Part shown: positions 2,915 through 29,238 of the stretch, piece by piece
Numbering within the stretch: position 1 is the first letter of the stretch
Layout of the letters: each line of letters starts with the position of its first letter
Origin: Amphiscolops sp. MND2022
Taxonomy: Eukaryota
Direction: 5' to 3'
Assembly (NCBI GenBank): GCA_964187785.1
Contig: OZ076409.1
Location: 50,966,001 to 51,030,000 of the forward strand
Length of the DNA stretch: 64,000 bases
Notes under the pieces: generated by a model
Told to the model about the DNA's origin: nothing
Database searches by the model: none
Seen by the model: only the letters and a program-made list of their open reading frames with translations
Made by a program: the position numbers and the translations under genes

Positions 2915-3486
2915 TGTTGGAAACGAAATTTTTGAAGCATGTCCCAGAGTAAAGAAACATCTTGAACGAAATTTTTAAACAAAAGTTTCAGTCAAAAGGA
3001 AGAAAGTTAGACCCGAAAATACCAAAAAGCATTTTGGAGCTACTATATATAAAACATTCTGCTGATATTCGTTGAATGATATAATTTTACACTCTGTTTG
3101 ATGCCCTATTTATTGAATAATACTTTTTGATTCATTAAAACTGCTACGCGTTGCTGGGCAGCCAATCAAATTCTTATGGTTGACTTCTTCATTGACAAGA
3201 CATTGATTTTACGTTGAATCTCTCAAAAGTTTCACTGCAATTGTTTGTCAATATTTCCTTTGCTCAAGCCAAAGTGGCTTCTTGAACCAGAGAATTACAA
3301 TAATTGGACAAGTCTTTTTATAATAATTGTTTTATCTCACAAATTGTGAGTGGTCCGTCGACAGAGAAGGTTCGTTAGCTCTAGAATATCGATTTTTGAA
3401 GACATTGCTTGGTACATTACCGAGATTTGAAGGTTTGAAATTCAAACAAAAACTCTTTTTGAGCAATCCTAAAGAATCATTGTACA
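2915..3486 (+). repeat. BEL 5' LTR
   Basis: TGTTGGAAAC...TTGTACA. Near-identical to 28626-29197 (three substitutions noticed). Confidence 0.97.
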
Positions 3487-3491
3487 TTTAT

Positions 3492-3510
3492 TGGTCCTTA
3501 ACGACCCGGA
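3492..3510 (+). promoter_or_regulatory. BEL primer binding site (tRNA-Tyr-like, imperfect)
   Basis: TGGTCCTTAACGACCCGGA lies 5 nt after the LTR and resembles the TGGTCCTTCGAGCCGGA PBS common in BEL elements. Confidence 0.65.
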
Positions 3511-7400: not shown

Positions 7401-8592
7401 TTTGATCCCCTTGGTTGGCTTTCACCGGTCATCTTGCAATTGAAGCAGCTAATGCAGGAAGTCTGGAAGTGCAAAACTGATTGGGATGCCCTCCTTCCTT
7501 CTGACATTGCGAAGTTTTATTGCCAATGGAGGTCAAAATTGATGATTCTGAATGAAATTGCGATTGATCGACTCGCTCTTTGCAATGAGCAATTTGATGA
7601 AGTCAATCTACACCTCTTTTGCGACGCCTCGGATAGGGTTATGCAGCCTGTGTTTATGTTGTTTCTTGTGACACACAAGGTAACATCAAATCCAGCCTAC
7701 TGACTGGTAAATCAAAGGTTTCCCCGTTGAAAACTCAATCCATTCCTCGACTTGAACTGTGCGCTGCACTATTAGGGGTGAATCTTTTGGACGCCGTAGT
7801 TAAAAGTCTTTCAAAGCTGAAGATGAAAATTCAGTCAAAACACGCATGGACAGACTCAACAATTGTTTTAGCTTGGCTTTTGAATGAGCCTAGTCAATGG
7901 TCCACCTTCGTGGCGAATAGGATTTCTAAAATTCAGGAACATGCGGATCTTACTTGGCGACATGTACCAAGTGAAGATAACGCAGCTGATGCTGCATCCA
8001 GAGGAATTGACCCTCATGCGCTGAAGGATCATTTGCTTTGGTGGTCTGGTCCTCAGTGGTTGGTCACCAACAAGTTTCCAGAACAGCGTCGGTATTGCGA
8101 GACAAAAGAAGAATTGAAACGCGTAGATCACAAGGTAAAACAGATTGACCCTAATCAAATGGTACTAACCGTAACAGAGTCAAAGAATGCGAAGATGAAT
8201 TTTGATTTGACGAAACAAAATTCCTTCGAAAAGTCACTGAGAGTTGTTGCAAATGTTAAGCGAGCACTTTCCCGGTTCAAAGGAGAAGATAAAAAATTTC
8301 CAAGTTACATAACATCTGATGAAAGGACTGAATCGCTGTTCATCCTACTACGACAGGAACAAGGCTTGTTCTACAAGGATGAGGTATCAACTTTGAAGAC
8401 CAAGAGCCAAGTGGACAAAACCAGTAGGATTTTAAAGCTCTACCCTTTTCTTCATGGAAATGTTTTGTGCGTGGGTGGACGTCTCGTGCATGCGAATTTA
8501 CCCGACGAGGCGAAGCACCAAAGAATTGTTCCTCCTGAGAGTCAACTTGCTCGATTAATCATCGCTAACGCCCATGAAAAAACCCTGCATGG
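4485..8592 (+). pseudogene. BEL gag-pol, 5' part (gag, Zn knuckles, protease, RT, RNase H, start of integrase Zn finger), with several stops and frameshifts
   Basis: LPKLNLPTFSG gag motif, CYNCLQLGHNVSKC and CRECRQKHHTLLH knuckles, LDSGSQ protease, YVDD RT, CDAS/PRLEL/WTDS/NAAD RNase H, HEKTLHG. Confidence 0.95.
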
Positions 8593-8939
8593 TAAAGTAC
8601 TTGGTTGTGGTTGGTATTTTAGTTATATGAGGAATTGAATCTTTTACTGATGTTACGATTAGTACTTTAAGAGACACTAATAGAGCTGCAGTTATTAGGT
8701 CTTAGAGGGAAGACAACTAATGGGTGAAGAGTCAATTCAAGTTGTGTTCTAAATGAAGGGTTATAGTATTGAATATAAATTAGTTACATCGATTTATGGT
8801 ATTGAATATAAAGTGGTTACATCAATTATTTTACATCTAGAATATAAATGGAGTACAATTATAATTTTACAGTCTAGACATACACGGGGCGGGGGGATAA
8901 ATATAATTTATAGTATAGCATCAATCATGGTATATCATC
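8593..8939 (-). repeat. 3' LTR of giant element
   Basis: Matches 27060-27406 with one mismatch seen (taatGggt vs taatCggt). Contains short internal gtattgaatataaa..gttacatc repeats. Confidence 0.96.
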
Positions 8940-10228
8940 CGACCGGGTTTTGAAATTAAAAATGAAAGTAAACTGTGGTGTTAAGTTTAAGATTGATTAG
9001 GGTATATTCAAAAGTTGAGGTGTTGTAAAAATTGTCGGAGATTGGTTTAATGTAGAATACGAGAAAATCTAGAGAGGAAATATGGAATTTGGTTAAAAAT
9101 GAAATTTGGTATTTGCTGAAAAAAAAATTTTTTATCTCGAGAAAAAGTTGTCTTGAAATTGTCTTGAAAGTTGTCTTCGTGTTGTATCTTTCCTTACGTG
9201 AGTTGCGTGCAAGATTGGGAAGCGAAATGTTTTCAGATATTAGGTAATTTTGATCAATAAGTTAAAGAATTTATTTAGAGTTTTTAAAATAAGAATTTGT
9301 TTAGAGTTGCTTTTACGTTCATGTTGGTGATGGGTATGAAATTTCACATAAGATTTATTTTGGTATTGAATTCGTTCAAAATTTCTTATGTTTATTTCTT
9401 CCGAGGCGGCAAAAGATTTGAGTGGCAGGTAGGAGTGTGACAGAAAAAATTTTGACAAGATTTTGGCAGCCTGATTGACAGAGAAGTTCAACATTTAAAA
9501 CAAAAGATTCTTAGTTGTTTGTTAACTAAGCGTTGATCTTTTGAGTCTTGGCTTGTGAGCAACGAAAATGAAATTGTAGAACTTCAAAACAAGGCGGCGT
9601 GATCAGATCAAAGTTGGCCGCGAAAACAAATCTATGTGAGTCAACATTTGTTCAAATTTAGATCATGTGGCAGGTCATTTCACACATTTTTTTCAATAAA
9701 CAATATTTTTGAGCAAAGGAATTCAGTTGCAGAATTGGCAAAGAATAAAGAGTTTGTCAGTGAGGTGAGTGTGTTTGAATATGTGAATTGGGAAGAGTAG
9801 GGAAAAAAGAGGAGATTTTTTAGAACCGAAGTTATAGAGGAGTAAAGTTAAAAATGTTTTTGGGAGAAGGGTGAAAAACTGGAATTTAGTTGAAAAAAAT
9901 GTTTATTGAAGTGGAAGAAAATTGAATAGGAAAGGATAGCTCCACAATTTGGAAGAGAGTGGGTCGGAAGGGGCATGGGAATATGTAATTTAGAAAATTA
10001 TGTCCCGTAGAACCGAAGTTATAAGAGAAATTTATGAAAAATTTTTTTGAACACTTAAAAAAATTTTACATAATCATTAAAAAAGAAGTTGAAATGTTGA
10101 GAATAAAAAGGTGGGGGGGTGACAATCAATGTAGGTAAGAGGCGGGGTGAAATGTATGAAAACATCAAGAAGCATAGATAATTTTGAACAAAATGTACAA
10201 ATGAATTTAAAGAAACATGGATCAAAAT

Positions 10229-11146
10229 TCAATCGACATCGTTTAAAGAAGTTACTAAATTATCTAAATCATTTAAAGGAGTGGGGGATTGAGAGGGTGG
10301 TGTTACGGGTTCAATACGAATAGGAATTAATGCGGGGGAAAGAGGGAGTGGGGGTAAAGGAGAAGGACATGTATATTTTACTGGAACATGGGAACAATGG
10401 GGGGTAGCGCATTGAATGTAATTGTTATAGTTACAGCAATTATGAGAGGGGATTTGAATAGTTAATGGGGGTAAAGGTCTATGTGTGAAAGGAGGCGATT
10501 TAAATTTACGTAATTTTGAAGGGGGGAGTGTATTATTAATAATATCTAATTGGAGCGTAGTTTGATAAATGAGTTCATCTAAATGTTTTTCGTACAATTT
10601 GAGTGCGTCGATATATTGTGAAAGTTTCTGTTTATAGACCACTGTGTGGACCAGTCGACGGACAGGTGGACCGTTTCCATTTGAGAGCTGTGGAAGTTTT
10701 GGGTGCCGTGGTTTTTTGATTTGAAGATCGTTAGTTAATTGTCGAACAGCTGAATATTGTTGAAGATTGGGAGATGTTGCGACTGCATCTTGAGGGTGCA
10801 GGGGAAGAGTGGAGATTGGCAACAAAGTTGGATGTGGAAGAGAAAAAATCACGGGAATTGGAAGAGAAGGAGTTGTTGTCGCAAGAGAGCTGAGTGGCGG
10901 CTGAAGAGTTGTTGTGGTCACAAGAGAGCTGAGTGGTGGTTGAATAGTAGAAGTTGAAGAAACAGATGATGATGATGATGATGTCACAGACAAAGAAGTA
11001 TCTGATGATGAAACTACAGACGAAGAAGTATCCATGGTCGAGAGTGTGAATGTTGAAGAAGTAGAAGAGACAGGAAATGGCGTAAGAGAGTCAAGGAGTT
11101 GGTTAAGGAGAGGGTATGCCAAAGAAGAAGAAGGATAATCTGACAT
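10229..11146 (-). CDS. Accessory ORF of giant element, 305 aa, unknown function (S/T/P-rich, coiled coil, Cys/His cluster)
   Basis: Intact ATG-initiated ORF in the element's sense orientation. Helix KQKLSQYIDALKLYEKHLDEL and cluster HNCC-x7-C-x3-HC-x-H. Confidence 0.65.
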   Translation of the reverse strand: MSDYPSSSLAYPLLNQLLDSLTPFPVSSTSSTFTLSTMDTSSSVVSSSDTSLSVTSSSSSSVSSTSTIQPPLSSLVTTTTLQPPLSSLATTTPSLPIPVIFSLPHPTLLPISTLPLHPQDAVATSPNLQQYSAVRQLTNDLQIKKPRHPKLPQLSNGNGPPVRRLVHTVVYKQKLSQYIDALKLYEKHLDELIYQTTLQLDIINNTLPPSKLRKFKSPPFTHRPLPPLTIQIPSHNCCNYNNYIQCATPHCSHVPVKYTCPSPLPPLPLSPALIPIRIEPVTPPSQSPTPLNDLDNLVTSLNDVD

Positions 11147-11791
11147 GACTAAAACAAAATTTTTGTTGAATTATTTTGTATTTATTGTAGATACTAGAGA
11201 GCAGTTTAATATTGAGAAAGAAAATGTTGTGATGAAATTTATTGATTCCAGAAGATGAGTTGAAAATTAGGAAGAAAATTTGGAGTAGTAGTGAAGTTGA
11301 GAGATTTTGAAAAGTAAATGAGAAGAAGAAAATTTTAGAAAGGAAATTACTTTAAAAGTAATAAATTTAAAAGATAAAGAGCCTGTTGTCAAAATTCTTA
11401 AAGAAGAACGATCAAAAATGTCAAGTGAGAGTATTTAAATATAAAGAAATTAATAGGAAGAAGTGTCAAAGTGAAAGGAAAGTGGAGTGATATATGTAAA
11501 TGAGGAGGAAGGAAATGAAATTTTATGTATATATAATTAGGTATTATTGTCAAAGAAGATAAGATTGAGGAAGTGAAAAGAGTTATTGTTAAAGATTGAA
11601 AAAGAGTTGAGAAAAGTTTTGAGAGTATAAGATAAGAATCTTGGAGAAGAAAACGAATCATTAAACAAAAGAGGAGAAAAATGTTGGGAAATATAGGAAG
11701 GATTTTAATAGAAAAGGTGGGATTTCTTACCAAATGAGAGAATTACTGTAAGAGAAAGTAGACAGAAAAGAAACTCTGGAAAAGAAGAATG

Positions 11792-13441
11792 TTAAGATGA
11801 AGTCAATTGAGGAGGAGTTTCAAGTAAAACAAGTTTTTTGAGAAAATCATTAACATGAATTGTAGAAAGGGTCAAATTTTGGATATCTGAAGAATGAAGT
11901 TGAAGTAAAGATTGGAGAGTACGGAACGTGTCAAAAATGTGATTTAAAATAACAAATGGATCAGTATTAGGAGCAATTTCAACATGAGGGCGAAGAAGAG
12001 TGAGAATTTCGGAGACAAATTTATCTGTAGGACAAGAGAAGGAGTTGATACAAACATTAGGGTTTGTAGTCTGAAGCACATACGAATTTGATTGAGGAGG
12101 AATTGGTGGAGGAGGAGCCTGAGAAGATTCAGTTACTGTATTAGGAGGAGTATGTTTAGGAAGAGTTTGAAGAATTTCATCAGAGATATTTAAAGAGAAA
12201 TATTTATATTGTTTTTTCAAAATAAAGGAGGAGAGTTTTGCAATGATAAAATTAAGTTGTGCGAGAGAATAGTGTTTGTGAACAAGAGCTGTATATAAAG
12301 AGCGGGAGTGATCGTCAAGAGGTGTTTCAACTAATTTATTCATTTTAGGGAAGAAGTTAGGAACAGCGTTAGGAATATGAGTTGGGAGAAGAAAGTCATC
12401 ATTTACATTAAGAGCTTCTTGTGGAACAAACAACGGACGAGTAGGATCATGGTAAGAAGAAAGAATAAAATATTGTTTAACTGGATCATAGTTTCGAATC
12501 GTTCCAATAGTGAAGAGATGATTTAAAGAATAGTGAGAGTGGTAGGAAAACGGGGAGGTGAATTTGTGATTTTGAAAAATAAAATTTTGGGGATGTTTTT
12601 GTTCTAAAAACAGTTGGTAGGTTTGATGATGAAGTTTTTTAACAGAAGGAGTGGTGGTAATATCGTTTGGATTAGTATTTAAATCATACTGTGTTGGTTT
12701 AAGAAGATTGAATTGAAATTGGAAGAAACGAACACGATTATTTTGCCAAAAAGCAAGTTGTGGTAGGTTTTTGGAAGCATAGGCGACATAATGATCAAAA
12801 TTACGATCTTGAGGGAAGCGAAATTTATAAGTTGTGGGAGTCATATATAGTGAAGGAAGATTGGCTTTAAAATTGGGATGTGTGCGAAGAAATTCGTCAG
12901 TCATGGTATTAGATTGAGAAGGAGTTTTCAATGGGTGAAGGGTTGGAGGAAGGATGCCAGAGTCAATGAAGACGGGATCTTCAAGAATATTATATTTCTT
13001 TTTGTTGGGAATTTGATGATTGTCAACAGTAAAATGAAGGTTATTAGGAGGTGGGGTAGGAGAATGACGAGTTTTAAGATTTGTAGAAGATGATTTATTA
13101 AGAGATTGCGAAGTTGTAGAAGTACCATTTAAAGTGGGTTCTGGTGTGGGATTAGAATCAAGAGGAAGCGAGGAGTCAGTGACAAGAGGAAGATCGAGGG
13201 TACCAGATTTAAGAGAAAGGGGAGGTGACAATGAAACTATACTGGACAAGAGTTCTTCTTCAGCATTAACATTAGTCATTTTGAAATCACGAAGGGAGTT
13301 TAAGACAAAAGTTGAGTGCGAAACAAACGTACGTTGGATGAGTAGTTTGAAAAGGTATGTAGATGCAAAAGAGGATGTTATGAAATGTGAAAGATGAGTG
13401 ATTTTGGAGGAGAGAAGGAGAAGTGACCAAATGAAAGGCAA
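11792..13441 (-). CDS. Accessory ORF of giant element, up to 549 aa (first ATG gives MTNVNAEEE...), unknown function
   Basis: Long uninterrupted ORF in sense orientation downstream of env, with globular-looking central and C-terminal segments. Confidence 0.7.
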   Translation of the reverse strand: MPFIWSLLLLSSKITHLSHFITSSFASTYLFKLLIQRTFVSHSTFVLNSLRDFKMTNVNAEEELLSSIVSLSPPLSLKSGTLDLPLVTDSSLPLDSNPTPEPTLNGTSTTSQSLNKSSSTNLKTRHSPTPPPNNLHFTVDNHQIPNKKKYNILEDPVFIDSGILPPTLHPLKTPSQSNTMTDEFLRTHPNFKANLPSLYMTPTTYKFRFPQDRNFDHYVAYASKNLPQLAFWQNNRVRFFQFQFNLLKPTQYDLNTNPNDITTTPSVKKLHHQTYQLFLEQKHPQNFIFQNHKFTSPFSYHSHYSLNHLFTIGTIRNYDPVKQYFILSSYHDPTRPLFVPQEALNVNDDFLLPTHIPNAVPNFFPKMNKLVETPLDDHSRSLYTALVHKHYSLAQLNFIIAKLSSFILKKQYKYFSLNISDEILQTLPKHTPPNTVTESSQAPPPPIPPQSNSYVLQTTNPNVCINSFSCPTDKFVSEILTLLRPHVEIAPNTDPFVILNHIFDTFRTLQSLLQLHSSDIQNLTLSTIHVNDFLKKLVLLETPPQLTSS

Positions 13442-13593
13442 AAACGACTACAAATGAAATGGGAAAAAGGTAACGATATTTATAATTAGTATGTAAAGGA
13501 GGTAAAATATTAATATGTAAAATTGATTTGGAGGTAAGTGAATTAAAGTATTAAAATGCAGGATATGAATTGAAGAAATTAAGAAATGAAAAT

Positions 13594-16346
13594 TTATTCA
13601 GGAGGAAAACGGCAAGAAGAATAAACTTTGACAGGACTGTCAGAGGGGTCGAAAATATTATTAACAGAAGTTAAGGGGATGTCATTAGTTTTAATTGGTG
13701 GCGGAGTAGGGGGATAAAGTTTTGTAGATTGCCATAGGTTATGTATGGGGGAATCATTTGAAGAATTATCACAATTGGTGTCATCAGTAGGAGGAGAATT
13801 ATGTAAATATAAAGAGGAAGTTAATGAAGGTATTTGAGGAGGTCGAGGAGACAGATTATTATGAGATGAAAGGTGAGAATTATAATGTGGGGGTGGGAGT
13901 AAATGATCTTCAGTATTAGGGGAAGTAGAATGTGGAATAGGAGAAGAAATAGGTTTGCTTGGAGAAGAATTAGGTGAAAATCTTTGCATTGGAGTTTTGT
14001 TTTTTAAATTAAGGATTTTCGTTTTAATATTCGTATGGTATTTGGGTGGACGAGGTTTGGGACTAGAAGATAGAGTATGGGTCTTTGCCAAGGGGAGTGG
14101 GGGGAATCTGAATCGTTAGGATCTGATGGTGAATTGGATGATTTAATCATAGCAGTCATCATTGTTTGGGTAATGGTTCCAAAGAAACCAAAGCCTAAAG
14201 CAGTAAGTACAGAGATTTGTTTTTTAAGCAAATTTCGAACAGTAAATGAACGATAAATACTAAAGAGTGTATTGAAAGCAAATTGTAGGAAGAGAGCGGT
14301 AGAGAAATAATTTCCACATTGGGTTAAAATATAGCATGGGTAGCCAAAAAGTTTTATGAAAGCATCGGTGAACCAATCAGGTGAAAAAAATGGAGTTAAG
14401 TTAAACATATAGTCATGAAGACCAATTCGAAGTGAACGGTAAGGATTATCAGGAAATGAATTATTAGATTGTTGATTCATGAATTCATAGCTAATAGCTT
14501 TTCCAAGGAGTTGAAGAGTGTTGTCGGAGTGTTTAGTAAATAAAACACGATTCCAAAAATGTTTCAATTCTTTTTGAGAATAGATTCCAGCATCTTGAGC
14601 GGTAAAGGTGTTAGGACTAATAGCAGTTTGAATTTGAGTCGGTTCAAAAAGAAGAGGAGGATCTTTTTGAATAGGTTGTGGAGTTAAAACATAATATTGA
14701 TCAGTATCAGGGTCAAGAGATATTACATTTTGAGGATTATTTTCACAAGGAATTTGATTAGCATACTCAAAAGTTTGACGTGTAATAGGGTCAACATACA
14801 TGACGGTGTCAAGATAATTAACAGGAATTTTGTCATAGCATTGGTCTGCAATATAAAGAGGTGAAAGATGATGAGGGCAGTCGTATAGCCAGGCAGTAGA
14901 GCCTTCGACATATAAAAAGTTACTACGGTTTTGAGTTAAGAGAAAACCAGCAAGTTGTGGATTTTTTACGGACATGGCGAGAATAGTTAAAAGTTGAGTT
15001 CTTTCAACTTCACATATAGTATGGAGGGTGTTAAGTTCGGCAACAGACATGCTTTTAAATACATGATTTATAGAATAATCAATTTTTGTATTAATATGGG
15101 CTTCATAGTCAATAGTGGCAAAATTATTGGAGGAATTTAAAGCAGGAAAAAGAAATTTATTTTGGGTATGAATTAATTTTCCAGATATTAACTGGGTAGT
15201 AAGTTGATTATATTGTTCATTTTGCGGTAGTTGAAGAGGATTGGGTTTACCAGTTTGCATATTAAATCCTTCTTTATATGTTATAAAAAGATCAGGGTAT
15301 TGAGTAAGATGTAGAGGAGTCGGTTTATTACAAAACATTTTATTTTCAGGGAAAATTTCAAAACGAGAGAGACGGGTTTGAGATTTGGTATCATGATAAG
15401 GAGTATCGGTTGAAGTAGTGGAGGAGTGGTTATTAAAAAAGTGTTCGGTTTCAAGCCAATAGCGATTATTAAGTTTAGACATTCGGCCAATAAAGGAATG
15501 AATGGAAAATATTAAACAAAGGTCTTCAGGAAACCAAACAATGGTAAAAGGTGTTAATATAGTCGGTTTGCAAAAACCATCATCATGGAGGCAGGGTAAG
15601 GTATGTCCATGGTAAATAAGTTTGTTATCTTTATCATCATAAGTAATTTCAATTTCTTTAACAATGAGAGACCAACTATCTTTTTCGATAATATATTCAT
15701 AGCGATCCCAACAAACAGCTTTTTCTTTTAAGGTAGAATTTAAAACTAATTGGGAATTGCTTATCCGAGCAAAAGCACCATAGTGAAAGGTATTGAGTTT
15801 AGTAATACGAAAAGGAGGTTGTTTTGTTTCTAAAAGGCGTTGTTTTTGAATATCATTGAAAAATGTAAAAGAGTTGGAGTAATTAAAAGCATCAAGTTGA
15901 GGATTATTAGTACCATTTAAATGGCGAATAGCATGTTTACATTCGGTAGGATCAAGAGTACGGGGGCGTTCCATAGTATTTTGGTGATAATCTGTACGGT
16001 CATGGCGACGGTATTTGTAATCGGATTGGGCACAGACAAATTTTTCACGTTTAACATAGGCTTCACAAGTCCAGGCTTTAAGACGTTTAGCTTTAGCTCG
16101 AACAAAAACATCAACTATAGCACGAGTACTTTCAAAAGTAGAAGGAGATTGAGCACAAGGTTGGACTCTGGTAAGACTAAATTGTCTTAAATTGTGTTGT
16201 TTAGAACAGTCATAATGAGATACCAAGAGATCCGATATATGAGGATCGTTGGGATCCACATGATCAGGAGAGGTATTAATTTGGAAAGAAGCTAAGAATA
16301 AGGAGGAAAAGAAGTAAAAGAACGAGTGAAGAAAGGAAGAGAGCAT
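13594..16346 (-). CDS. env: Envelope glycoprotein, chuvirus-G / Tas-env / herpes gB-like (class III fusogen). 780-aa ORF with a probable frameshifted S/P-rich cytoplasmic tail (13594-14091)
   Basis: N-terminal signal peptide, then YDC...SLTRVQPC...C...C, CEVERTQLL...NPQLAGFLL, CYDKIPV...MYVDPITR...QIPC, GIYSQKEL. Multiple N-glycosylation sequons and C-terminal hydrophobic segments. Confidence 0.85.
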
Positions 16347-16347
16347 G

Positions 16348-17664
16348 TTAAAATTGTGCGGTATATTTTAAAAACGTTAGGGTATTAAGAAAAGTGATTG
16401 AACCGTGGAGAAGACGGAAGGGGGGATGGTCGCTGACAAAAAGGTTAAGATTTGTGGTAATAAATGGGTGAGGAAGGGATTTAAAATGAACTGTTGTATG
16501 TGAAGGAATAAGGTGGGGGCTTAAGTTATGGAATTTTACTGTAATTTCAAATTTGAGTTCTAAATTTGTATCTTCAAGACGAAGAAATTCTTTACGACGG
16601 CGTGCATCAGAAATGTGAGGATTTGAATTAAGTTTATGGGTTGCAAGGTAGAGAAAACGAGGGTCTTGGCGGGGGTGGTTAACAAGGGTGCTATTTACGA
16701 TTAGAGGGTAGTCGACACGATTAGGTGTAGGGGGAGTAGAGTATTGGTCAGTAGTAAGGTCAATATTAAGTATATGGCTGTCAGATGAAAGATTACTGGA
16801 GTTTTGAGAAGTGGGACGAGAGAAAAGGTGACCAGTGTGAGTATAAGAGGAAATAGAAGAGCGTTGAGAAAAGGCAGTGTCAATTCCGGAAGTTGGAGAA
16901 TTTGCTGTTAAAGATTCGGAAGAAAGAGATTGAGCGTGGTGACGTAAAAGAGAAGAGTTAGTGCTTGCAAGAGAAGGGGAAAGACGACGATTATTACGAA
17001 GGTTATATCTATGACGAAGAGGTGGGCGAAGAGTAGATTCGGAGGTATTGTCGAGTAGGTTATCTAAAGAAGAAGTGGTGTATTTAGAGGCGGAATTTGA
17101 AGGAGGGAGACGAGGATAGAGAAGAGAGCAAGTAGTTGAATCAACTTCGCTTAAATCAGATTTCTTTTGAAGAGAATCAAGGGATTCGAGAGCAGGAATT
17201 TTCAGTGGTTTAGTTAAGGGGAGTGAAGATTTAGAAGAAGTATGAGAACAAGGTGGAGGAATGGAAAAGGAATGATCTAATTGGGAACGTCTACGGAAAG
17301 ATTTTATGGAAGTAGGTATAAGAGTTGATTTGGGAATGTTTGGATTATTAATATTGCGTAGGAGAGTAGGATTAATATCACTAGGATCAGGGATATGAAA
17401 GGAAGGAGGGGGAGAATGGGCAGGGGTTATATCAAAAGGGAATTCAGTATCAGAAAGTGGGAGAGTTAAAGCAGTTTGAGTATGTTGAGGAACAGAAGTT
17501 TTAATAGGAGTGTGACTTGGAGTGTTAACAGGAGTGGTATCTAAAGAAGGGGTGATTGGTATTGGATTTAGGGGAGGTTGTTGAGGAGTTGGTAAAACAC
17601 TTTGTGATGAAGGTATAGTATCACTTGAAACAGAAGAAGAAGGTTGAGAGGAGGAATCAGACAA
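16348..17664 (-). CDS. Accessory ORF between pol and env, 438 aa (TTG start), S/P-rich N-terminus with a compact C-terminal domain
   Basis: Open frame ending 1 nt before the env ATG (TAA-C-ATG). Contains LYPRL and RYNLR motifs. Confidence 0.65.
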   Translation of the reverse strand: MSDSSSQPSSSVSSDTIPSSQSVLPTPQQPPLNPIPITPSLDTTPVNTPSHTPIKTSVPQHTQTALTLPLSDTEFPFDITPAHSPPPSFHIPDPSDINPTLLRNINNPNIPKSTLIPTSIKSFRRRSQLDHSFSIPPPCSHTSSKSSLPLTKPLKIPALESLDSLQKKSDLSEVDSTTCSLLYPRLPPSNSASKYTTSSLDNLLDNTSESTLRPPLRHRYNLRNNRRLSPSLASTNSSLLRHHAQSLSSESLTANSPTSGIDTAFSQRSSISSYTHTGHLFSRPTSQNSSNLSSDSHILNIDLTTDQYSTPPTPNRVDYPLIVNSTLVNHPRQDPRFLYLATHKLNSNPHISDARRRKEFLRLEDTNLELKFEITVKFHNLSPHLIPSHTTVHFKSLPHPFITTNLNLFVSDHPPFRLLHGSITFLNTLTFLKYTAQF

Positions 17665-18029
17665 AAATACAGTAAGATCCAGGATGGAAACAAAATGAAA
17701 GTTTATTGGGGTGGTTTTAGAAAATAGAAATTTGTGTGGTGTTAAAACAGAGAGGGTTAAATATGAAGGGATGGAGAAAGCTTATTATTGAGAGGAGAGG
17801 AGATATTGAAGAAAGGTTTGAGAAGATTTAAGACTTATTATTTTTTATGAAATCAAGTTTTTATTAGAGCAACCGTTCAGCTAAATTCAGCAATATAAAG
17901 TGAAGAAAGGTGCATAAGAGACAATTACTAATGACATTGTCATAATTAAATTGTCATTCGTCAGACTGTATTAGAAGTCTAGACTAACGTCAGTATGGAA
18001 GGGTAGGAAATGCAATTAAAATTGAATAT

Positions 18030-19812
18030 TTAATCAGGGGGGAAATTGATGTTTGGTTTGGTGGGATTATATTGTCGGGGGGGAAGTGAACGTAGATTAT
18101 AAGGAGAGTGAGGAGCTCGTGTGTAAGTAGTTTCATTTGGAGAATTAGGTATATCTAAAGGATCAAGTGAAGGAGATGAGGATGAAAGATTTGAAGAATC
18201 AGCAATACGAGGAAAGAATTGGGGGAAAGAATCATTTGAGGAATGGGAATAATAAATTGGATTAGGAAGCATTTCAGAGTCAGAGTCTTGAGAGTCAAAA
18301 GTAGTGTCAAGGGTATTGCGAAAAGAAGGAGAGGAGTGTAAAAAGTTTTCGTTAGTAGGAGTAGAAGGGGGAATATTATGTAAGTTATCTAGTGAAGAAG
18401 AATATCTGGAAAGGTTTTGATATGTAGGGATGGAAGTGGGGGAACTGTTATGTTTTTTATGATTCGAAGATGTAAGAGTTTGAGACTGATTTGAGGTTTG
18501 GAGTGGTTCTAAGGAGGAAAAGCGAGAAAAGGTATCTTGGTAAGATTCAGTATCAGGATTATTAATAAGAGAAGGAGTAGAGTAGTAATGTTTAATATAG
18601 GGAAAAATTATAGGTTCTTTGGGATAATATGGTAATAATATGATTTCGATGGGTTTGAAAGGTAGAGCCGTCTTGAGAAAGGAGTTCATATGTTACTTCA
18701 GAAAGATGGTTAATGATTTTATATGGGCCAATTCGAAGAGGTTTGAGCTTTTTTGAAAAGTTAACAGGTTTAAAATTAGTATGAATGACAAATGTATTAA
18801 GAGGTAATTGTTTTAGGTGAGTTGTTTCGAATGTAGAACTTTGAGAATTAAGTTTATGGTTTATATGACGATGGACAGTGGAATATATTTCTAACATTGC
18901 AGTCTCAGCTGCTAAAAGCCAGGAGGAGATAGGTTTTTCAAGAATTGAGTGAAAGAAGGGATTAAGATCGTGGGTGCTGTAATGGGAATGGGGGGGAAGA
19001 GATTCACAATAAGTTGCGATACAATTTTTTGAAGCATTACGAGGTAAGTTAAGAGAAAAGGTGAGAGGTATACGAGGATGAGTATGGAAAACAATCTGAT
19101 AAGGAGAAAGTTTAAGTTGAGAAAGAGGTGTCGTATTATGAGCATATGCATACATTTGTGTTTGAAATGACCAATTGGTAGGAGGATTTTGTAAAAAAAT
19201 TCGAAGATGAGTTCCAAGGTTTCGGTTTTGAACTTCAACTAGACCATTTGTCCAAGGAGAGTAAGGAGTTCGGGGTGAGTGATTAATATGAAAAAGAGAG
19301 CATAGATGAGCCATGTCTTGATTTATATATTCAGTACCTCGGTCTGTAACAAGATATTGAGGGGGACCAAATTTTGTGATCCAATGGTGGAGAAGAGTTT
19401 GAATAGCATATTTTGAAGTAATATGAGGAGCTGGGTTTGTAACGACAAAATGACTGAATGCATCTATGATGACAAAAATATAGGAGTTGTTTTGTGAAGA
19501 TGGAGAAATAGGGCCTTTAGTATCCATAGAAATCCGATAATTAAAGTGGGTAGCATTTTCATAAAAAGGAAGAGGAGGAGAAATGTTTTGGGGTTTAATA
19601 GGAAAATGCTTATTAGTTTGACATTCTATGCAGTCATGGATGAAAATTGAGAACCATAAAGGTAAATGAGGGATGAAATAAAATTGATTAAATGTCTTAA
19701 TTGAGAGTTTTTCACCGGAATGACCATGAGAATGTGTTTTACTAAATGCAGCATAGAAAAGTTTGAATGGTAGGCATATACGTGTTTGGTTAATAGAGGG
19801 TTGAGTTTTAAT
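18030..19812 (-). pseudogene. Integrase of giant element (HHCC, DDE, GPY/F, long S/P tail), two frameshifts
   Basis: HSHGH...DCIEC, MDTKGP, VTDRG, GLVEVQN, GPYKII. Shifts at ~19812 (T run) and ~18635. The tail ends PYNLRSLP. Confidence 0.9.
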
Positions 19813-22064
19813 AAAATTTCTTCAAAAACCCGAGAATTAGGAGTATAATATTGAATAAGATGAGAACTTGGATCAAAGTATAAATGTTGAAATTGTTTAT
19901 AATATGTATATAAAAAGGAGTTAGCTTTAATAACTGGAGTCAAGGAATGAGGTCTTTGTTTTTGTTTTAACCATTTAAATACTGTGGAAAGGACAGGATC
20001 ATCCTTTTGAGCTTGGAGTAAAATAGGTACTGTGAGAAACGTGTCAGAAGGAAGGAAGAAACTATCAAATGCTTTACGATGAGCAAAAAAGGAGGGGTCA
20101 AAAAATGGTAAAGATTGCGTGTGTGTGGTTTTTGGAGCAGTTTGAGTTATAGCATTATTTTCAATAGTACTATTAATAATAGGAGAGGAATTGGTAAAGT
20201 TGGTTATGATGTCTTGAGACAAATTGATATCATTGAAATAATGGTGTTGTATTTCGGTAAAAAGAGTGTGAAGTTCATGAGATGGTTGGGAATGCTGATG
20301 AGGAATACGTTTAAGAACAGGATCGTCCGTTTCGTATAAATCAGTTTCATTTAAAAGGGGGTTTTCTTGAAGTAAGGTTTTGACTTTATTTTTGACAGGT
20401 TTTTTGTATTTATTCAGGAATGAAGAAACAGATTGAAATGAAAAGGAATCTAAAGGAGTGTATTTAACAACATTGCCTTTATCTTGTATACGAAGTGTGA
20501 ATTGATCATCACCGTAATCAGCCAAGATTAGGTGTGAATCATTTTTTTGTGTAGGAAGAACATCTTCATGTTTTACGAGGTAGTGAATAGGTTGTAAAAT
20601 ATTGTTATTTTTAAGTTGAAGAAAATCAATATGAGGAGGAAGAGTTTTGTGTTGAAGTTGGCATGTTTGGGTATTAATAGTCGAAAAATCTCTACTAAGC
20701 ATATCTGCAACAGTAAGATTTGTACCAGCTGTGTGGATTATTTGTAAATTTGAAAATTTGGTTAATAACATTTGAGCTTTATATTGTCTAGGAGTTAGAT
20801 TACCTTTACGGGTGAAAAGGAAAAGAATAGGATTGTGATCTGTAAAAATAGTTATTGGAAATTTGGAGCCAATTATAATAAATTCATATTGAGAAAGGGC
20901 AAAGGTAATAGCGCAAAGTTCTCTATCATAGGTAGAAAGTTTTTGTTCTTGTGTTGTTAAAATACGAGAATTATAAGAAATTATTTGCATTTTATTTTTG
21001 GAGTTTGGTTGAAATAAAACTGCACCTAGGCCTATTAAAGAGGCATCGACAGTTATATAAAACGGATGAGTTGTATTTGGGATAGCAAGTTCTGCTTCTT
21101 TAGAAAGAGAAAGTTTGATTTGGTTAAAAAGTTTATCTAAATCGGGGGTCCATTCGAATGGAATATCATCATGGAGAAGAGTGTAAAAGGGTTTTAAAGA
21201 GATGTGTAATTTGTTGATGAACTTGGAGTAAAAATTCATTGATCCAATAAAGCGCATTAATTCAGTTTTTGAAGTAGGAGTTTTTAATTTGTGAAGAGCA
21301 TCAACTTTGGAAGAGATAGGTTTAATTGTATTATTACCGATTTCATGTCCAAGAAATTTGACGGTGAGGAGGATATAGAAAGATTTTTCAGGAGCAATTT
21401 TAAGATTATTTGTTTGACAAATTTGATGAAGTTGTTCAATTAAGGTTAACATATGTGGTTTTGTATGTGCGAGGAGAAGGATATCATCTATATAAACTAA
21501 TGCAAAACCTTGGTCAATAAGTTTTTGAAAGAATGAATACATTTGTTTGGTAAAGAAATTTGGTAAGCCTTTAAGGCCATAAAATCCACGGGTGAAAGCG
21601 TAAAGTTTGTCACCAGAAGAGAAACTTGTTAAAGTTATAGTTTCTTCATCTAAAGGAGCGTGGGCATAAGCGTACATAAGGTCAATAGCGGATTTGAATT
21701 TTTTGTTAGCACGTGCAAGTTGGGGGGCTAGTGGTTCAATAGGCCAAGATTCGAAAGATTGATCAGTGTTTGAATTAAGATGGCGTGCGTCTAAAACGAC
21801 TTTAATAGTATCTCCCTTAGGGATAATAATAAGGGGGTTTAAAAATGTAGTACCATAAATGGATTTGTCAGAATGAGTGGAACCAATTTGACGAATAATA
21901 TTGTGTTTTTCTAATTCATCAAGGAGTGTTTTTAATTTTTCTCTATAGTGAATAGGAACTTTGGTAGGTCTTTGAGTTTGAAGTTTAGCATTAGGTTTAA
22001 GACGAATTCTAAAAGGAGTAGCTATCCGGCCAACATCATTTTTATGTGTAGCGTAGCAGGATCG
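19813..22064 (-). CDS. pol: Reverse transcriptase + RNase H of giant element (in frame with gag-pro across one TAG)
   Basis: VLDARHLN, IDLMYAY, FYGLKGLPNFF, YIDD, VDAS, RELCAI, TDH, ADMLSR (Ty3/gypsy type). Confidence 0.93.
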
Positions 22065-25000
22065 CTATTTAACAAGAATGGAGCAAAGTTGTAAATATTC
22101 TTCATCAGTTACATCAGAGTATTGGAATTTAAATTTATGAAGGAATTGTTGAGTGTCTGGTGAATATGGTAATGATGGAAGAGGTCGGGTTAAAATTTGA
22201 GAAGGTTGCAAATTGTTTATTTCAATTTGAGGGTTTCGAAGAGAAGAACGTCGGCGAGGAGGTTTGGGTTCAGAAAGATCAGGATAATATGAATGAAATA
22301 CAGTGTGTATTAAAGAGTTAACATCATTAACTTTGTAATGAGTTGGTTGAATATTAGTGGCTGGAACTTCAATGTATCCAATAGATCCAGGGGCAAGAAT
22401 GGCAGAATGATGTGTGATATTTTGAATAATCACAGAACAACTGGAATGTTCGGTATTAGTATTTTGATATACTTGGAGGAAATTAAAGGTGGAGTTGAAG
22501 CGTGTGTTAAAAAATGGATGGGGTGTGGAAGGAAATATAACTTCATTATCGGAAGTTTTAAATGTTAAAGGAAGTGTTGGTTGAATTGGAAAATGAATAA
22601 TTTGAGAAGCATTTGGTTTAAAATAAACTTTATTTTTAACATTGATGGTGTATATGTAAGAAAAATATGGATAATCTTTTTCTTTATGAGCCGTAAAAGG
22701 GAGAGTATTGACACGAGATTCATGTGGGGTATTGAATGTTAATGACATGCTTTCAATATTGAGGGTTTTAACATATTTTTCAAAGAAGGGAGTTCCAAGA
22801 ATATTATATTTAATATTTGCAACTGCAAAAGGAATAACAAGGGTACGAGTATTTCCTTGGAGGGAGGTATGAAGTGTAAGTATAAGATTATGGAGAATAG
22901 GTACTTCAGATTTATTGGCGACAGTTAAAGTTTTATATTCATTTTGAGATGGGGAGTGTTTTGAACATTTTAAAAAATGATCGGCTAAAATGGTGAAGGT
23001 GGGTAAATTTAAAACACAGATGGATGCTCCACTGTCAAGTAAGAATAATAGTTCTAATTTAGAGGGAATAGAGGTATCTTCCTTGGGTTTAAAAAGAAAT
23101 AAATTAACAAACCAAGTGGAAGGTGTGAGAGCATTAGCATGTTCAGTAGAAGGTGAAGAAGATTGGGGGAATGGAGGATTAGGGTGGTACATGTTTATTT
23201 CAAAATGAGTTTGTGAAGGGGAGTTGCTTTGAATGGGTGGTGTAGACGGATGTGTAAGATTTAAGGAAGGTTTATATTGAGATGGGGAGGGGTGATTTGA
23301 ATTTGAATGAGATCGGCTACGATAACGATCATGGCGTGGTTTAGAAGGAGGACGATAAGGAGAAGTGTATCTGTTAAAAGTAGAAGTATTAAAGTTGGAG
23401 CCACGTTCACGAGAACGGGGATAATATTTAGATGGACTACGAGAAGAATTGGAGTTATAATATGTTCGTGAAGAAGAATATGGTTTAGAATTTTGATGGT
23501 AATGTTTGTCATATCTAGATCTATCACGATTATGAGATGGGGAATATGTACGAGAGGATGTTTTATAGTTGTATCTAGAGCGTGAATGTGAACGTGAATT
23601 AGAACGAGAATGGTAGCGATTGTCGTAGCGATTGTCGCGAGAGGATTTGCGAGATTGATTACTATAACTTCGACTACGGTATCGAGGATAACGAGATTTA
23701 TTTGAAGGAGTTTTAAAATGTTGATAAAAGGTAGGAGTTGGAGATCGAGATTGTGGTTTTGATTCTTTGAGTAAATTAAGGCGACGAAAGCAAGTTGAGA
23801 CAGAGTGATTATTTTTATGGCAAAAAGAACAATATTTTTTAAATTGAGGTTTGGATTTATTGTTCGGATCAATGACTTGAACGTGTGGAGGTTCTGAAGG
23901 AGGATCTTGAATATTTGTATTTTGTTGAAAAGTGGTAGATAAATTGTTTATTTCAAGTGAAAGTTCTTGAGTTTTAATTTTTTCAAGAGTGATATCTTCG
24001 GAATCGACCATATTGACAAGAGAGTGAAAAGGAATTGACGGTTCTAAAGAACTGGAAACATGTTTAACTTGGCGTTTGTTGGCAAAGTCTTTTAGTTTTT
24101 TTGGGAGACCACGAGTGAAAATTTCATTGCATTTAAGGTTAATAGTGGACGGATATTCATTGTACCATCCTTGTTTAACAAGTGTTTCGACTTTAAGAGC
24201 AAAGTGACGGACATTTTCATTATCTTTTTTAACAAGGGAGAGAGCTTCAATTTGAGCATGGTATGCATGTTTTTGAGAATAAAATTGTTTCTTAAAAATT
24301 TGGAGGAAAGATGACCAATCATCTTTATAAACTTGGGGGAGGCGATCAAACCAATTAGAAGCAGTTCCTGTAAGGGAACAGTATAAGAGAGACATTCGAC
24401 GAGAATGCCAGGTTAAATATGAGTGAATATCAGTAGGTTGAGGACCAAGTTGAAATGTTACTCGAGCACTAAGATGTGCCAAAAATTTTTCAGGAGGATA
24501 AGTATGGTCAAGGCCATCAAATAGTTTAATGGGATCAGAAAGAGCGGCAAAAGGGACGGAAGGGGTTGTGGGAAAAGGAAGAGATGGCTGAAGAGAAGAG
24601 TTGAAAGGTATTGTTGAAGTGGACAGAGTAGGTTGAGGGGGGTTAGGAGGAGGTTGGTGAGAATTAGTGGGGAAATTTTGAAAAGCTGGATGAAGAGAAA
24701 CATAAGGATTATATGAAGTGGGTTGTGTATTAGAAGAAGAAGTTTGGGTAATAGAAGAGATTGGAGGATGTGGAGGAAAAGATTGATTATGAAGAGTATT
24801 ATTGAAAGAAAGAGGAATGGGGGGTAATGTGGGAATGGAGGAGGTAGAGAGTGAAACTGAGTTGGGGGGAACAGTAGGTGGAGTATTAGAAGGTGTGTTA
24901 TATTGATTCGGAGAGTTGGAAGGAGAGAGGTTTTCATTATTTAAGGTGACTTGAGAAGTAGAAGTAGGATTATGTTGATTGTTAAGAGAGATGGGATTTA

Positions 25001-25934
25001 TTAAAGCATTTGAAGATGAAGGAAGAGTTTGAATAGAGATGTTGGAAGTTGTATCAGTTGAGGGAGGTAGGTATGATTGTTGAGTATAAGGACGAATAGG
25101 AGAGGGAAGGTTAAGACTTTTATTAAGACTATTGGGGTCATAGGCAAGATATTGAAAATGAGAGGATGGGAAATCAAGGAGATTATAATACTGTTTGTGA
25201 TGGTTATCAGAATTAATAATAAAAGGTAAAAGTTCATCTGAAGAAAACTGTTGAGGAAAATTTATACATGCATCTTGGAACTTTGAGTGCCAAACGAGTT
25301 GGTAGTTGTGTCTAAAAATTTTTCGGAGGAAGAGAGAATAAATTTGAATTTGTTCTTTGGTTTTTGTATTGAGGGTAAGATTTTGAAAGAATTGATATTG
25401 AAAATGGTGAATTTGAAGAATATCAGTTGTGAGCCAATGATGAGGATTATTTTCAATAGTTCTAAATTGTTCAATATTAGAAAGATTGAAAAGGGATTCC
25501 TTTTGAAGAAGGTCCTGTATGGAAGAAGGATTAAAAACATGTTTGGTTAAAAGGTTATTGTTTTCTTGAAGATGATTGAGGAATGTGGTAAAGACTTTAG
25601 CGATAGGGATGTAAATATTATTAGGGTAGATGTTTTTACGAAATGTATCGGAGCGATTTTTGAGAGAAGTGAAGGGAATAGAAAATGGGGGTTCTTCAGA
25701 ATTTAGAACTAGAGAATGGGTTTCAATATAATATAAATATGAATCATGGTGTTCACGAATAAGAGGAGCTGTATATATATCTTCAGGGTAGGTTTCAAAA
25801 GAAAGAGGAGTGGTGGAATTGTAAATGAGATTGTTAAGAAATTGAGTGAGGGTTTGTGAAACATCACGGGTAATACGTTGAGTGGTATTGAAAACAAAGG
25901 GGAGAGGGATAAGAGGTTCAATTGGATCAGTCAT
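22065..25934 (-). CDS. gag: Gag-protease polyprotein of giant element, 1289 aa
   Basis: ~300-aa N-terminal extension, P/S/T/N linker, capsid-like FDG...LTGTASNWF...WSSFLQIFKKQF, CX2CX4HX4C knuckle (CSFCHKNNHSVSTC), RS-rich tract, LLDSGAS protease. Confidence 0.93.
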   Translation of the reverse strand: MTDPIEPLIPLPFVFNTTQRITRDVSQTLTQFLNNLIYNSTTPLSFETYPEDIYTAPLIREHHDSYLYYIETHSLVLNSEEPPFSIPFTSLKNRSDTFRKNIYPNNIYIPIAKVFTTFLNHLQENNNLLTKHVFNPSSIQDLLQKESLFNLSNIEQFRTIENNPHHWLTTDILQIHHFQYQFFQNLTLNTKTKEQIQIYSLFLRKIFRHNYQLVWHSKFQDACINFPQQFSSDELLPFIINSDNHHKQYYNLLDFPSSHFQYLAYDPNSLNKSLNLPSPIRPYTQQSYLPPSTDTTSNISIQTLPSSSNALINPISLNNQHNPTSTSQVTLNNENLSPSNSPNQYNTPSNTPPTVPPNSVSLSTSSIPTLPPIPLSFNNTLHNQSFPPHPPISSITQTSSSNTQPTSYNPYVSLHPAFQNFPTNSHQPPPNPPQPTLSTSTIPFNSSLQPSLPFPTTPSVPFAALSDPIKLFDGLDHTYPPEKFLAHLSARVTFQLGPQPTDIHSYLTWHSRRMSLLYCSLTGTASNWFDRLPQVYKDDWSSFLQIFKKQFYSQKHAYHAQIEALSLVKKDNENVRHFALKVETLVKQGWYNEYPSTINLKCNEIFTRGLPKKLKDFANKRQVKHVSSSLEPSIPFHSLVNMVDSEDITLEKIKTQELSLEINNLSTTFQQNTNIQDPPSEPPHVQVIDPNNKSKPQFKKYCSFCHKNNHSVSTCFRRLNLLKESKPQSRSPTPTFYQHFKTPSNKSRYPRYRSRSYSNQSRKSSRDNRYDNRYHSRSNSRSHSRSRYNYKTSSRTYSPSHNRDRSRYDKHYHQNSKPYSSSRTYYNSNSSRSPSKYYPRSRERGSNFNTSTFNRYTSPYRPPSKPRHDRYRSRSHSNSNHPSPSQYKPSLNLTHPSTPPIQSNSPSQTHFEINMYHPNPPFPQSSSPSTEHANALTPSTWFVNLFLFKPKEDTSIPSKLELLFLLDSGASICVLNLPTFTILADHFLKCSKHSPSQNEYKTLTVANKSEVPILHNLILTLHTSLQGNTRTLVIPFAVANIKYNILGTPFFEKYVKTLNIESMSLTFNTPHESRVNTLPFTAHKEKDYPYFSYIYTINVKNKVYFKPNASQIIHFPIQPTLPLTFKTSDNEVIFPSTPHPFFNTRFNSTFNFLQVYQNTNTEHSSCSVIIQNITHHSAILAPGSIGYIEVPATNIQPTHYKVNDVNSLIHTVFHSYYPDLSEPKPPRRRSSLRNPQIEINNLQPSQILTRPLPSLPYSPDTQQFLHKFKFQYSDVTDEEYLQLCSILVK

Positions 25935-26170
25935 TAGGAGTGTCTATGAGGAAAATAATGTAACCAAATCCAATCCATAATAATATCAGGGTGAATTGAC
26001 GGTTCAATTGGGAGAGGGAAGAAATACCGATGAATTATTTGGAAAAGGGCAAAATAAAATGAAGAGAGAAACGAATGAAAGTATGTGGGTATTATAATAA
26101 GAAAAAGGGAAATGAAGACAAGTTGAAAAAGAGCGATGAAGGGGTTATGGTGAAGAAAAAGGAGGTTCAT
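25934..26170 (-). CDS. Small hydrophobic leader ORF (78 aa) whose stop overlaps the gag start (TAATG)
   Basis: ATG-initiated with two hydrophobic stretches. The minus strand reads ...tcc TAA TG act. Confidence 0.4.
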   Translation of the reverse strand: MNLLFLHHNPFIALFQLVFISLFLIIIPTYFHSFLSSFYFALFQIIHRYFFPLPIEPSIHPDIIMDWIWLHYFPHRHS

Positions 26171-26679
26171 ATAAAGATGGAGGAGAAAAGAAGGAAAGTG
26201 ATAAAAGGAAAAAAAAGGAAATAAGGGGAAGTAGAAAGGGGAGAAGGGAGAAGGAGACAGAAAGTTAAGAAGAAGGGGAATTAGTGAAAAAGGGATGTAA
26301 CAATTTTTTCAATGAGGAGCATTAAAAAAACAAGCATTGCAAAAATGTAGGAAACGAAAAGGATGATAGTGGCGAGGTTTTCAGTGAGAAACATTAAAAA
26401 AGATTATGTTCGATATTGGTCAAAAACATGGGGAATGAAAGGAAGAATAAATTTGTCAAGAAGAAGAAGAACAATGGCACAGAGACCAAGAAAGTAAAAA
26501 AGTATTAGGCAAATACAAACAGAGTCATTGAGGGAAGGCATAAAAAGTTTTTGGAAAAGATGAAAATGGAGAGATGTTGAAAATAAGAAAGGAAATGATA
26601 TAAAATGAAAGGAGAAGGGTTGAAAAGGTGGAGCCGTTAGAGGCGAACTAAGATACAAGGAGTTAAGGGGAAAAGGAAA

Positions 26680-26980
26680 TGTACCAGCGAAAAGCTGAAT
26701 CACAAAGGTGATTAGTACAGAAGGCGAGATTGTACCAGCACGGAGCTGAATCACAAAAGGTGATTAGTACAGAAGGGGAGATTGTACCAGCACGGAGCTG
26801 AATGACAAAAGGTGATTAGTACAGAAAGAATAGTGTACCAGCAAAAAGCTGAATCACATGAAAGTGATTAGTACAGAAAGAAATGTACCGACTACTAGGT
26901 CGAACCACGGAAGGTGATTAGTACAGAAGACTTCAGATTTGTACCGACAATGAGTCGAATCACGTTGTGTGATTAGTACA
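26680..26980 (-). ncRNA. Array of six three-way-junction RNA modules in the 5' leader of the giant element
   Basis: Sense unit UGUAC-U-AAUCAC-loop-GUGAUU-CAGC-loop-GCUG-GUACA. CAGC/GCUG changes to CGAC/GUCG compensatorily. Loops and linkers vary. Confidence 0.75.
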
Positions 26981-27044
26981 GAAAGTTTGTTTGAAAGAAA
27001 AATGAGAAAAAGAAAAAAGTGTTTTAGGAAAAGGAAAGAAGTGA

Positions 27045-27057
27045 GCTGGTCGCACCA
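27045..27057 (-). promoter_or_regulatory. Primer binding site of giant element (tRNA not identified)
   Basis: The sense strand reads LTR ...GTACTTTA-AC-TGGTGCGACCAGC. Confidence 0.65.
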
Positions 27058-27059
27058 GT

Positions 27060-27406
27060 TAAAGTACTTGGTTGTGGTTGGTATTTTAGTTATATGAGGA
27101 ATTGAATCTTTTACTGATGTTACGATTAGTACTTTAAGAGACACTAATAGAGCTGCAGTTATTAGGTCTTAGAGGGAAGACAACTAATCGGTGAAGAGTC
27201 AATTCAAGTTGTGTTCTAAATGAAGGGTTATAGTATTGAATATAAATTAGTTACATCGATTTATGGTATTGAATATAAAGTGGTTACATCAATTATTTTA
27301 CATCTAGAATATAAATGGAGTACAATTATAATTTTACAGTCTAGACATACACGGGGCGGGGGGATAAATATAATTTATAGTATAGCATCAATCATGGTAT
27401 ATCATC
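27060..27406 (-). repeat. 5' LTR of giant element
   Basis: Direct repeat of 8593-8939, adjacent to the PBS. Confidence 0.96.
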
Positions 27407-29197: not shown

Positions 29198-29238
29198 ATT
29201 CTTTCGACGTTTTGAATTCTTTGAAATTTTTTGACGTT

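Follow-up and report, generated by a model that had tools for sequence, protein, structure and literature searches.

The locus analyzed here raises two questions, namely how an envelope gene of viral type came to reside in a retrotransposon of Amphiscolops sp. MND2022, and how such a gene might be expressed. We analyzed a 64,000-nt stretch of DNA, hereafter the window (contig OZ076409.1 of assembly GCA_964187785.1, forward-strand positions 50,966,001 to 51,030,000), in which an initial annotation made from the letters alone had noted an envelope resembling chuvirus G and herpesvirus gB, carried by a gypsy-type element.

The carrier was found to be a Ty3/gypsy element of 18,812 bp on the minus strand (window positions 27404-8593), with a pair of 345-bp LTRs (5' LTR, 27060-27404; 3' LTR, 8593-8937; both minus strand) that differ by one mismatch. 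Searches with two diverged envelopes recovered three more families from the same genome, i.e., F2 (~18 kb, eight copies fetched), F3 (~12 kb, three copies) and F4 (~19 kb, three copies), in addition to the family of the window element, F1. All three have a pol homologous to that of F1 and an envelope belonging to Pfam family PF24664, and share its primer-binding site, 11 nt (27047-27057, minus strand) complementary to the CCA-extended 3' end of a host tRNA-Val(UAC). The usual LTR ends are TG...CA; those of the window element are TG...TA, and the 3' TA was present in 20 of 20 scored F1 copies. The LTRs of F2, F3 and F4, in contrast to those of F1 (window 8593 and 27060), end in CA. Just downstream of the primer site, the long leader contains tandem repeats of ~50 nt (26680-26985). 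No plain purine tract was seen in any family at the site preceding the 3' LTR (window 8938-8951). The stretch from 9000 to 27000 exhibits an extreme strand skew, with G accounting for only 7-11% of the coding strand.

The gag-pol gene (18030-25934, minus strand) encodes Gag (PF03732) with a zinc knuckle, protease (PR), reverse transcriptase (RT; PF00078, with a YIDD motif), RNase H (PF17917/PF17919) and integrase (IN; PF00665), which are in the order PR-RT-RNase H-IN and by Pfam of gypsy type. In unbroken F1 copies it forms a single ORF of ~2,635 aa, and in the window copy it is disrupted three times, by a stop at 22065-22067 and by frame breaks near 19800 and 18635. The gypsy element has inserted into a BEL/Pao element on the plus strand (2915-29203; LTRs 2915-3492 and 28626-29203, 99.1% identical), splitting its integrase ORF. 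This surrounding element has no env of its own here, and the Pao families PF05380, PF03564 and PF18701 were matched by the flanking element only. The initial annotation had placed env within the gypsy LTRs (27404-27060 and 8937-8593) and outside the BEL element, which was borne out; env also lies inside gypsy LTRs in sister copies at unrelated sites, and is not linked to a Pao-type pol within Pao LTRs. Elsewhere in the window are an intron-poor gene for cytoplasmic leucyl-tRNA synthetase (31897-36368, plus strand) and an ORF that by eye reads like a LINE-type endonuclease fragment (438-1652, minus strand). The mitochondrial code of the host, an animal, is of the invertebrate type as judged from codon contexts in COX1 (AGR = Ser, ATA = Met, TGA = Trp, AAA = Lys), which by the established code tables argues against cnidarians, ctenophores, tunicates, echinoderms and most flatworms.

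The F1 sample consisted of the window copy and 20 fetched sister copies, ten of which were top-ranked on long contigs and ten picked for an open env. A 4-bp target duplication was present in 18 of 20 scored copies, the 21st having no 5' end, and LTR pairs were identical in ten of 20. Of the two copies without a 4-bp duplication, one is that of the window, where the duplication (27405-27408 and 8589-8592) is imperfect at two bases. These are identical to the two bases that precede the 3' LTR, which points to either an assembly artefact or an untrimmed end. Exact LTR-primer junctions numbered 250 for F1 and 1,813 for F2. All five frames of the element (gag-pol, ORF B, env, ORF C and ORF D, in that order in the unbroken layout) were open in 6/21 copies, a count that gives no rate since half of the copies had been picked for an open env. 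The window element belongs to a large Ty3/gypsy family and was inserted recently; the breaks in its env and gag-pol reflect either mutation or assembly error.

The main frame of env (14004-16346, minus strand; Met1 at 16346) comprises a signal peptide, a class III ectodomain with 14 conserved cysteines and a membrane anchor. The entire motif series named by the initial annotation was located in this frame, i.e., HYDC..FSLTRVQPC (residues 44-64), CEVERTQLL (445-453) and CYDKIPVNY..VDPITRQ..QIPC (503-534), together with NPQLAGFLL and GIYSQKEL. By hydropathy scan, the N-terminus is hydrophobic, in keeping with the signal peptide that had been claimed. The claimed hydrophobic anchors were found at residues 673-691 and 711-729 of unbroken sister copies, whereas those of the window copy itself fell below the hydropathy cut-off. 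The long P/S-rich cytoplasmic tail, with PPKY and PPHY, is present in a second frame (13594-14115, minus strand), and the frameshift suspected in this copy does exist, the reading frame breaking near 14082-14094, within the tail. Tail and env are continuous in many sister copies (916-923 aa), and many of 150 matches scored to env lie in open frames of >900 codons. The PPxY motifs, seen in the tails of F1 and F2 and absent from those of F3 and F4, may be chance occurrences in a proline-rich sequence. The 14 ectodomain cysteines were each retained in 27-30 of 30 aligned proteins, most of which are 20-30% identical.

By profile search, env matched PF24664 (Monjiviricetes_fusion) at E 5.7e-27 and 94.4 bits, against a cut-off of 27, and this was the sole Pfam family found in 29/29 aligned relatives. 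The best 10 of 30 Atlas matches were all clusters of viral fusion glycoproteins, with monjiviricete G followed by rhabdovirus G, gp64 and gB (score 0.94, 198/256 features, flagged by the tool as of low recognition value). The AlphaFold and Foldseek comparison that had been suggested was also run. The env model, built from an alignment of 31 sequences, is poor (pLDDT 42, pTM 0.29, C-terminal half unresolved). Among viral models, the leading Foldseek matches to this poor model were nevertheless the G proteins of xinmo-, qin- and chuviruses (identity 12-15%, E 1e-13 to 1e-11), and in the PDB the top place was taken by herpesvirus gB (E about 1e-5). With VIA, an independent aligner, ranks 1-4 went to HCMV and HSV gB (83-211 residues aligned at rmsd 3.5-12, Z 6.2-6.7) and rank 6 to rabies G; gB, rabies G and PH domains lead the structural matches (Z 5-6.7), which cover residues ~30-340 of the poor model. 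Given that TM-scores were 0.1-0.2 and all Z values <8, the fold match is to be read as a local, domain-level similarity of the N-terminal half that adds to the profile evidence. Neither env alone nor the env profile matched the PDB by sequence. A host membrane protein was considered and rejected, as no such match leads any env search. Profile, Atlas, Foldseek and VIA all point to the gB/chuvirus-G-like class III type first proposed for this protein, and we regard the fusogen class and its gypsy context as almost certain. The protein is predicted to act as the membrane fusogen of the element.

Three further ORFs, which the initial annotation did not note, accompany gag-pol and env. ORF B (16348-17682, minus strand) precedes env, and ORF C (11792-13279, minus strand; 495 aa in both F1 subfamilies) and ORF D (10229-11146, minus strand; 305 aa, about 300 aa across F1) follow it. 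None of the three matched a Pfam family. Comparison of the two subfamilies, F1a and F1b, at dS about 0.9-1.3 (about 0.9 for env) gave dN/dS values of 0.09 for gag-pol, 0.10 for ORF B, 0.07 for env, 0.05-0.06 for ORF C and 0.23-0.26 for ORF D. All five ORFs are under purifying selection. Homologues of ORF B (35% identity) and ORF C (43% over about 290 aa) are present in F2, and BLAST found no ORF D homologue there. In both F1a and F1b, the ATG of ORF D is preceded, at 2 nt, by a T-rich..AG that resembles a splice acceptor. A conserved stretch near residues 260-290 of ORF C may resemble a Tudor/SH3-like barrel. ORF C was also considered as a chuvirus nucleoprotein, an idea that found no support in Pfam, Atlas or the PDB, the last searched with an ORF C sequence profile.

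ORF B has 444 codons and contains no methionine, in F1 as in F2. Its predicted start is a CUG at 17682-17680 in the context ATC-CTG-GAT, with A at -3 and G at +4. The 9-mer ATCCTGGAT was found at the ORF B start, in frame, in 21/21 F1 and 8/8 F2 copies, where ~0.0006 occurrences are expected per 300 nt, and it occurs once per element in each of three F1/F2 elements scanned whole. It is absent from F3 and F4, neither of which has ORF B. In a further family, one decayed copy contains ATC-CTG-GAT and after it 1,585 nt without an ATG; of four decayed loci of that family, the motif is in this one only, another has TTG and internal ATGs, and another is without the region. The CTG is preceded by a stop at a distance of only 5-7 codons in F1b and F2. 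No stable hairpin was found downstream of the CUG. Readthrough or frameshifting from pol into ORF B was rejected, since stops lie between them in ORF B's own frame.

The N-terminal part of the ORF B protein is P/S-rich, and its C-terminal part is modelled as a helix pair and a small beta-sandwich of no known family. A matrix gene of negative-strand RNA viruses was considered for ORF B and found no support: the C-terminal model (pLDDT about 70 in the domain; 57 for the whole model) had a best Z of 4.8, to generic beta-sandwiches, and matched no viral protein below E 0.2. By Pfam for ORFs B-D and by the ORF B model, no neighbouring viral N, L or M gene of an endogenous chuvirus was recognized.

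Between the CTG and env, where 6.7-9.0 ATGs are expected over all frames, F1 has none in 11/21 copies and one in 10/21 (~1,340 nt), and F2 has two in 8/8 copies (~1,170 nt). Four such ATGs were checked, and the frames that begin there run for 1-16 codons. Under codon shuffling, the deficit had P values of 0.001 (F1a), <0.001 (F1b) and 0.068 (F2, where the env ATG was included in the count). Under a null that allowed synonymous changes only, P was 0.007 for F1b and not significant for F1a (0.34) and F2 (0.096). Other ORFs were at or above the null mean for ATG in 11/11 cases, and P/S-rich control stretches had 6-11 ATGs per kb. As copies within a family are not independent, the motif and ATG evidence amounts to three or four lineages. 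Between the ORF B stop and the env ATG lie 1 nt in F1a and a few nt in F1b; in F2 the ATG and the end of ORF B overlap. Upstream of the CUG, AUGs lie 220-280 nt away in F1 and 60-70 nt away in F2, and the scanned RNA must therefore begin close by. Taken together, the absence of methionine from ORF B, the conserved ATC-CTG-GAT and the near-absence of AUGs predict initiation at the CUG and leaky scanning to env on one mRNA, a route to which we give somewhat better than even chances from these sequence features. The same type of env is found in F3 and F4 without ORF B, which is therefore dispensable for env in general. A search of the literature outside subscription papers yielded reviews only and showed no report of non-AUG or leaky-scanning env expression in gypsy elements.

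The strongest competing explanation is that ORF B is a second exon with an AUG spliced in from upstream, that a separate mRNA, spliced or driven by an internal promoter, serves env, and that the interrupted palindrome ATCCTGGAT functions as a promoter or binds a protein rather than marking the start codon. In Drosophila gypsy, env is usually reached via splicing. Splicing is likewise the route to env in Tor3a (PMC4402516). Moreover, ORF D has its acceptor-like site, and the 9-mer reads ATCC-W-GGAT on both strands. However, inspection by eye showed no AG shortly before the CTG in F1, the synonymous differences that separate F1a from F1b set in directly after CTG-GAT, and in each of three families the motif is found in frame. 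Were env translated from an mRNA that skips ORF B, there would moreover be no cause for AUGs to be purged from that ORF. We therefore consider the spliced arrangement unlikely, at about one chance in four.

Our preferred reading, which we consider likely, is that the window element is a recent copy of a large Ty3/gypsy family in which a class III envelope, the predicted fusogen, is translated by leaky scanning through the CUG-started ORF B. According to this model, full-length RNA from the 5' LTR would yield Gag-Pol as a single polyprotein, and reverse transcription would be primed by tRNA-Val. A shorter RNA, probably driven by an internal promoter of the kind known from Oikopleura Tor4b, would begin in the gap between pol and ORF B and would be scanned. 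A minority of ribosomes would start at the CUG and produce protein B, and the remainder would cross 1.3 kb without an AUG and start at env, the ratio of B to Env thereby being fixed. ORF D would be expressed from a spliced RNA. Drosophila gypsy moves from soma to germ line by means of its F-type Env. By analogy, Env trimers on budded particles might fuse with neighbouring cells and carry the present element from soma to germ line.

Whether the family forms working infectious particles is, in our estimation, evenly balanced. One alternative is that env is kept for a non-infectious role, such as cell-cell fusion, intracellular budding or interference with related elements, with spread taking place within germ cells only. 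A sequence scan of env for R-x-K/R-R found no such canonical furin site, and herpesvirus gB requires partner glycoproteins; entry by gB-type elements is called unknown in PMC13524379. Against such a role, env dN/dS is 0.00-0.05 over residues 40-740, in places as strongly conserved as RT, and all four families keep env, two of them in hundreds to thousands of copies. We regard an exclusively non-infectious role as improbable.

With regard to the origin of env, identities of F1 to F2, F3 and F4 were 59, 32 and 31% for the env ectodomain, 72, 44 and 44% for RT-RNase H, and 66, 34 and 39% for integrase. The comparison of env and RT trees that had been suggested was made for the genome's own families only, and the unrooted trees of env, RT-RNase H and integrase, which at five taxa are small, all had the same topology. 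As env identity tracks pol identity over four families with matching trees, the sequences speak for a long joint descent of env and pol, which we hold to be very probable; a recent capture would not give parallel env-pol divergence. The new, independent capture by a Ty3/gypsy lineage proposed in the initial annotation is thus not supported, given this joint divergence and the prior publication of the pairing (PMC13524379). An env profile search returned 2,725 clusters at E 0.001, and in a wider env tree the F1/F2 and F3/F4 envelopes are separate, each with outside relatives. No related loci were found among viral and metagenome contigs. A recent capture from a chuvirus-like virus, for which the nearest named structural neighbours (xinmo-, qin- and chuvirus G) and the Monjiviricetes_fusion profile might speak, is very improbable and as to its recency already largely refuted, as the 12-15% identity to viral G is below the 20-29% found to 25 other relatives among the 2,725 clusters, env and pol diverge jointly, the two env pairs stand apart in the wider tree, and the pairing has been published as ancient (PMC13524379). 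The capture may instead be an ancient one, separate from the published gB-type lineages.

The other families have features of their own. On G000:C9 (7863156-7900160), three F2 env matches are spaced 18,204 bp apart and likely represent a head-to-tail array. If all of its 1,813 junctions belonged to full-length copies, F2 would occupy up to about 3% of the genome. The fetched F4 loci (L100-L108) have LTRs of ~2,075 bp, and 4.6 kb separate their pol from env, a gap in which there are several short ATG-started ORFs of no known family. In 3/3 fetched F4 copies, an ORF after env and within the LTRs encodes a coiled coil and a MATH (TRAF-like) domain (PF21355, E 7.7e-22; L101:6573-7343 on G000:C5), possibly a captured signalling modulator. 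In F3, env is followed by a coiled-coil-rich ORF of 505-519 aa (L092:6554-8125), unrelated to ORFs B-D.

The association of gB-type env with Ty3/gypsy elements has been described across animals by Chary and Hayashi (eLife 2026, PMC13524379), with 114 obtained via chuvirus-like BEL env baits, and the core of the finding is therefore known. As in their elements, we found a Ty3/gypsy pol, the order gag-pol-env, a gB-like class III env with conserved cysteines, a furin site that is not always kept, many near-identical copies, and an env that diverges with pol. Intact gag, pol and env of Ty3/gypsy type are present in several copies here, which agrees with what that study operationally terms HSV/gB-type errantiviruses. 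In contrast to those elements, the present one measures 18.8 kb, its gag and pol are fused, its pol and env are separated by 1.7 kb that include an entire gene, and two more ORFs follow env. The first filter of that study admitted gaps of 1,000 nt and 10 kb, and extension by hand went to 3-5 kb. Its text contains no match to "accessory", "splic" or "subgenomic", its element table does not contain our primer site, and xenacoelomorph terms have no match in the paper or its seven supplements. The expression of invertebrate gB-type envelopes, and their function without herpesvirus partner proteins, are stated there as open.

Other systems show partial likenesses. Anakin, a mosquito BEL/Pao element whose chuvirus-derived glycoprotein is tied phylogenetically to chuvirus EVEs (Dezordi et al., bioRxiv 10.1101/2020.02.15.950899), is also an LTR element carrying a chuvirus-G-like env; it differs in having a BEL/Pao rather than a Ty3/gypsy pol, and identity of env to viral G is 12-15% here. 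An internal promoter located between pol and env has been documented for the Oikopleura element Tor4b (Henriet et al., 2015, PMC4402516). In the available part of that report, however, no intervening CUG-started gene is described, and the Env of Tor elements is furin-cleaved with seven conserved cysteines. The expression strategy proposed here resembles ORFs I-II-III of rice tungro bacilliform virus, which has a non-AUG first ORF, long ORFs without internal AUGs and leaky scanning to a downstream gene (PMC5902531); the same review also names the dicistronic vpu/env mRNA of HIV and rev/env mRNA of SIV. That virus is a plant pararetrovirus whose pregenomic RNA is scanned after a shunt, and the likeness is a functional analogy, not homology.

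With the pairing of gB-type env and gypsy already known, what is new is the size of the element, its three accessory genes under selection and the putative CUG/leaky-scanning route to env. More tentatively, and with somewhat less than an even chance of being correct, the element may stand for a group of giant and complex retroviruses of invertebrates that carry a class III env and accessory genes, and in which env is translated from a bicistronic RNA by leaky scanning past a CUG-started, AUG-purged gene, analogous to HIV vpu/env and to tungroviruses. B would then be a partner in assembly whose amount relative to Env is fixed, and sister families would add cargo such as the TRAF-like MATH protein. 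If the predicted route to env is right, gene expression in the style of complex retroviruses would have evolved in Ty3/gypsy elements, with three accessory protein families without known fold or function. The family offers young, abundant copies and a sharp prediction on env translation, and such a layout would escape gene callers and surveys that depend on an ATG or on a short distance from pol to env.
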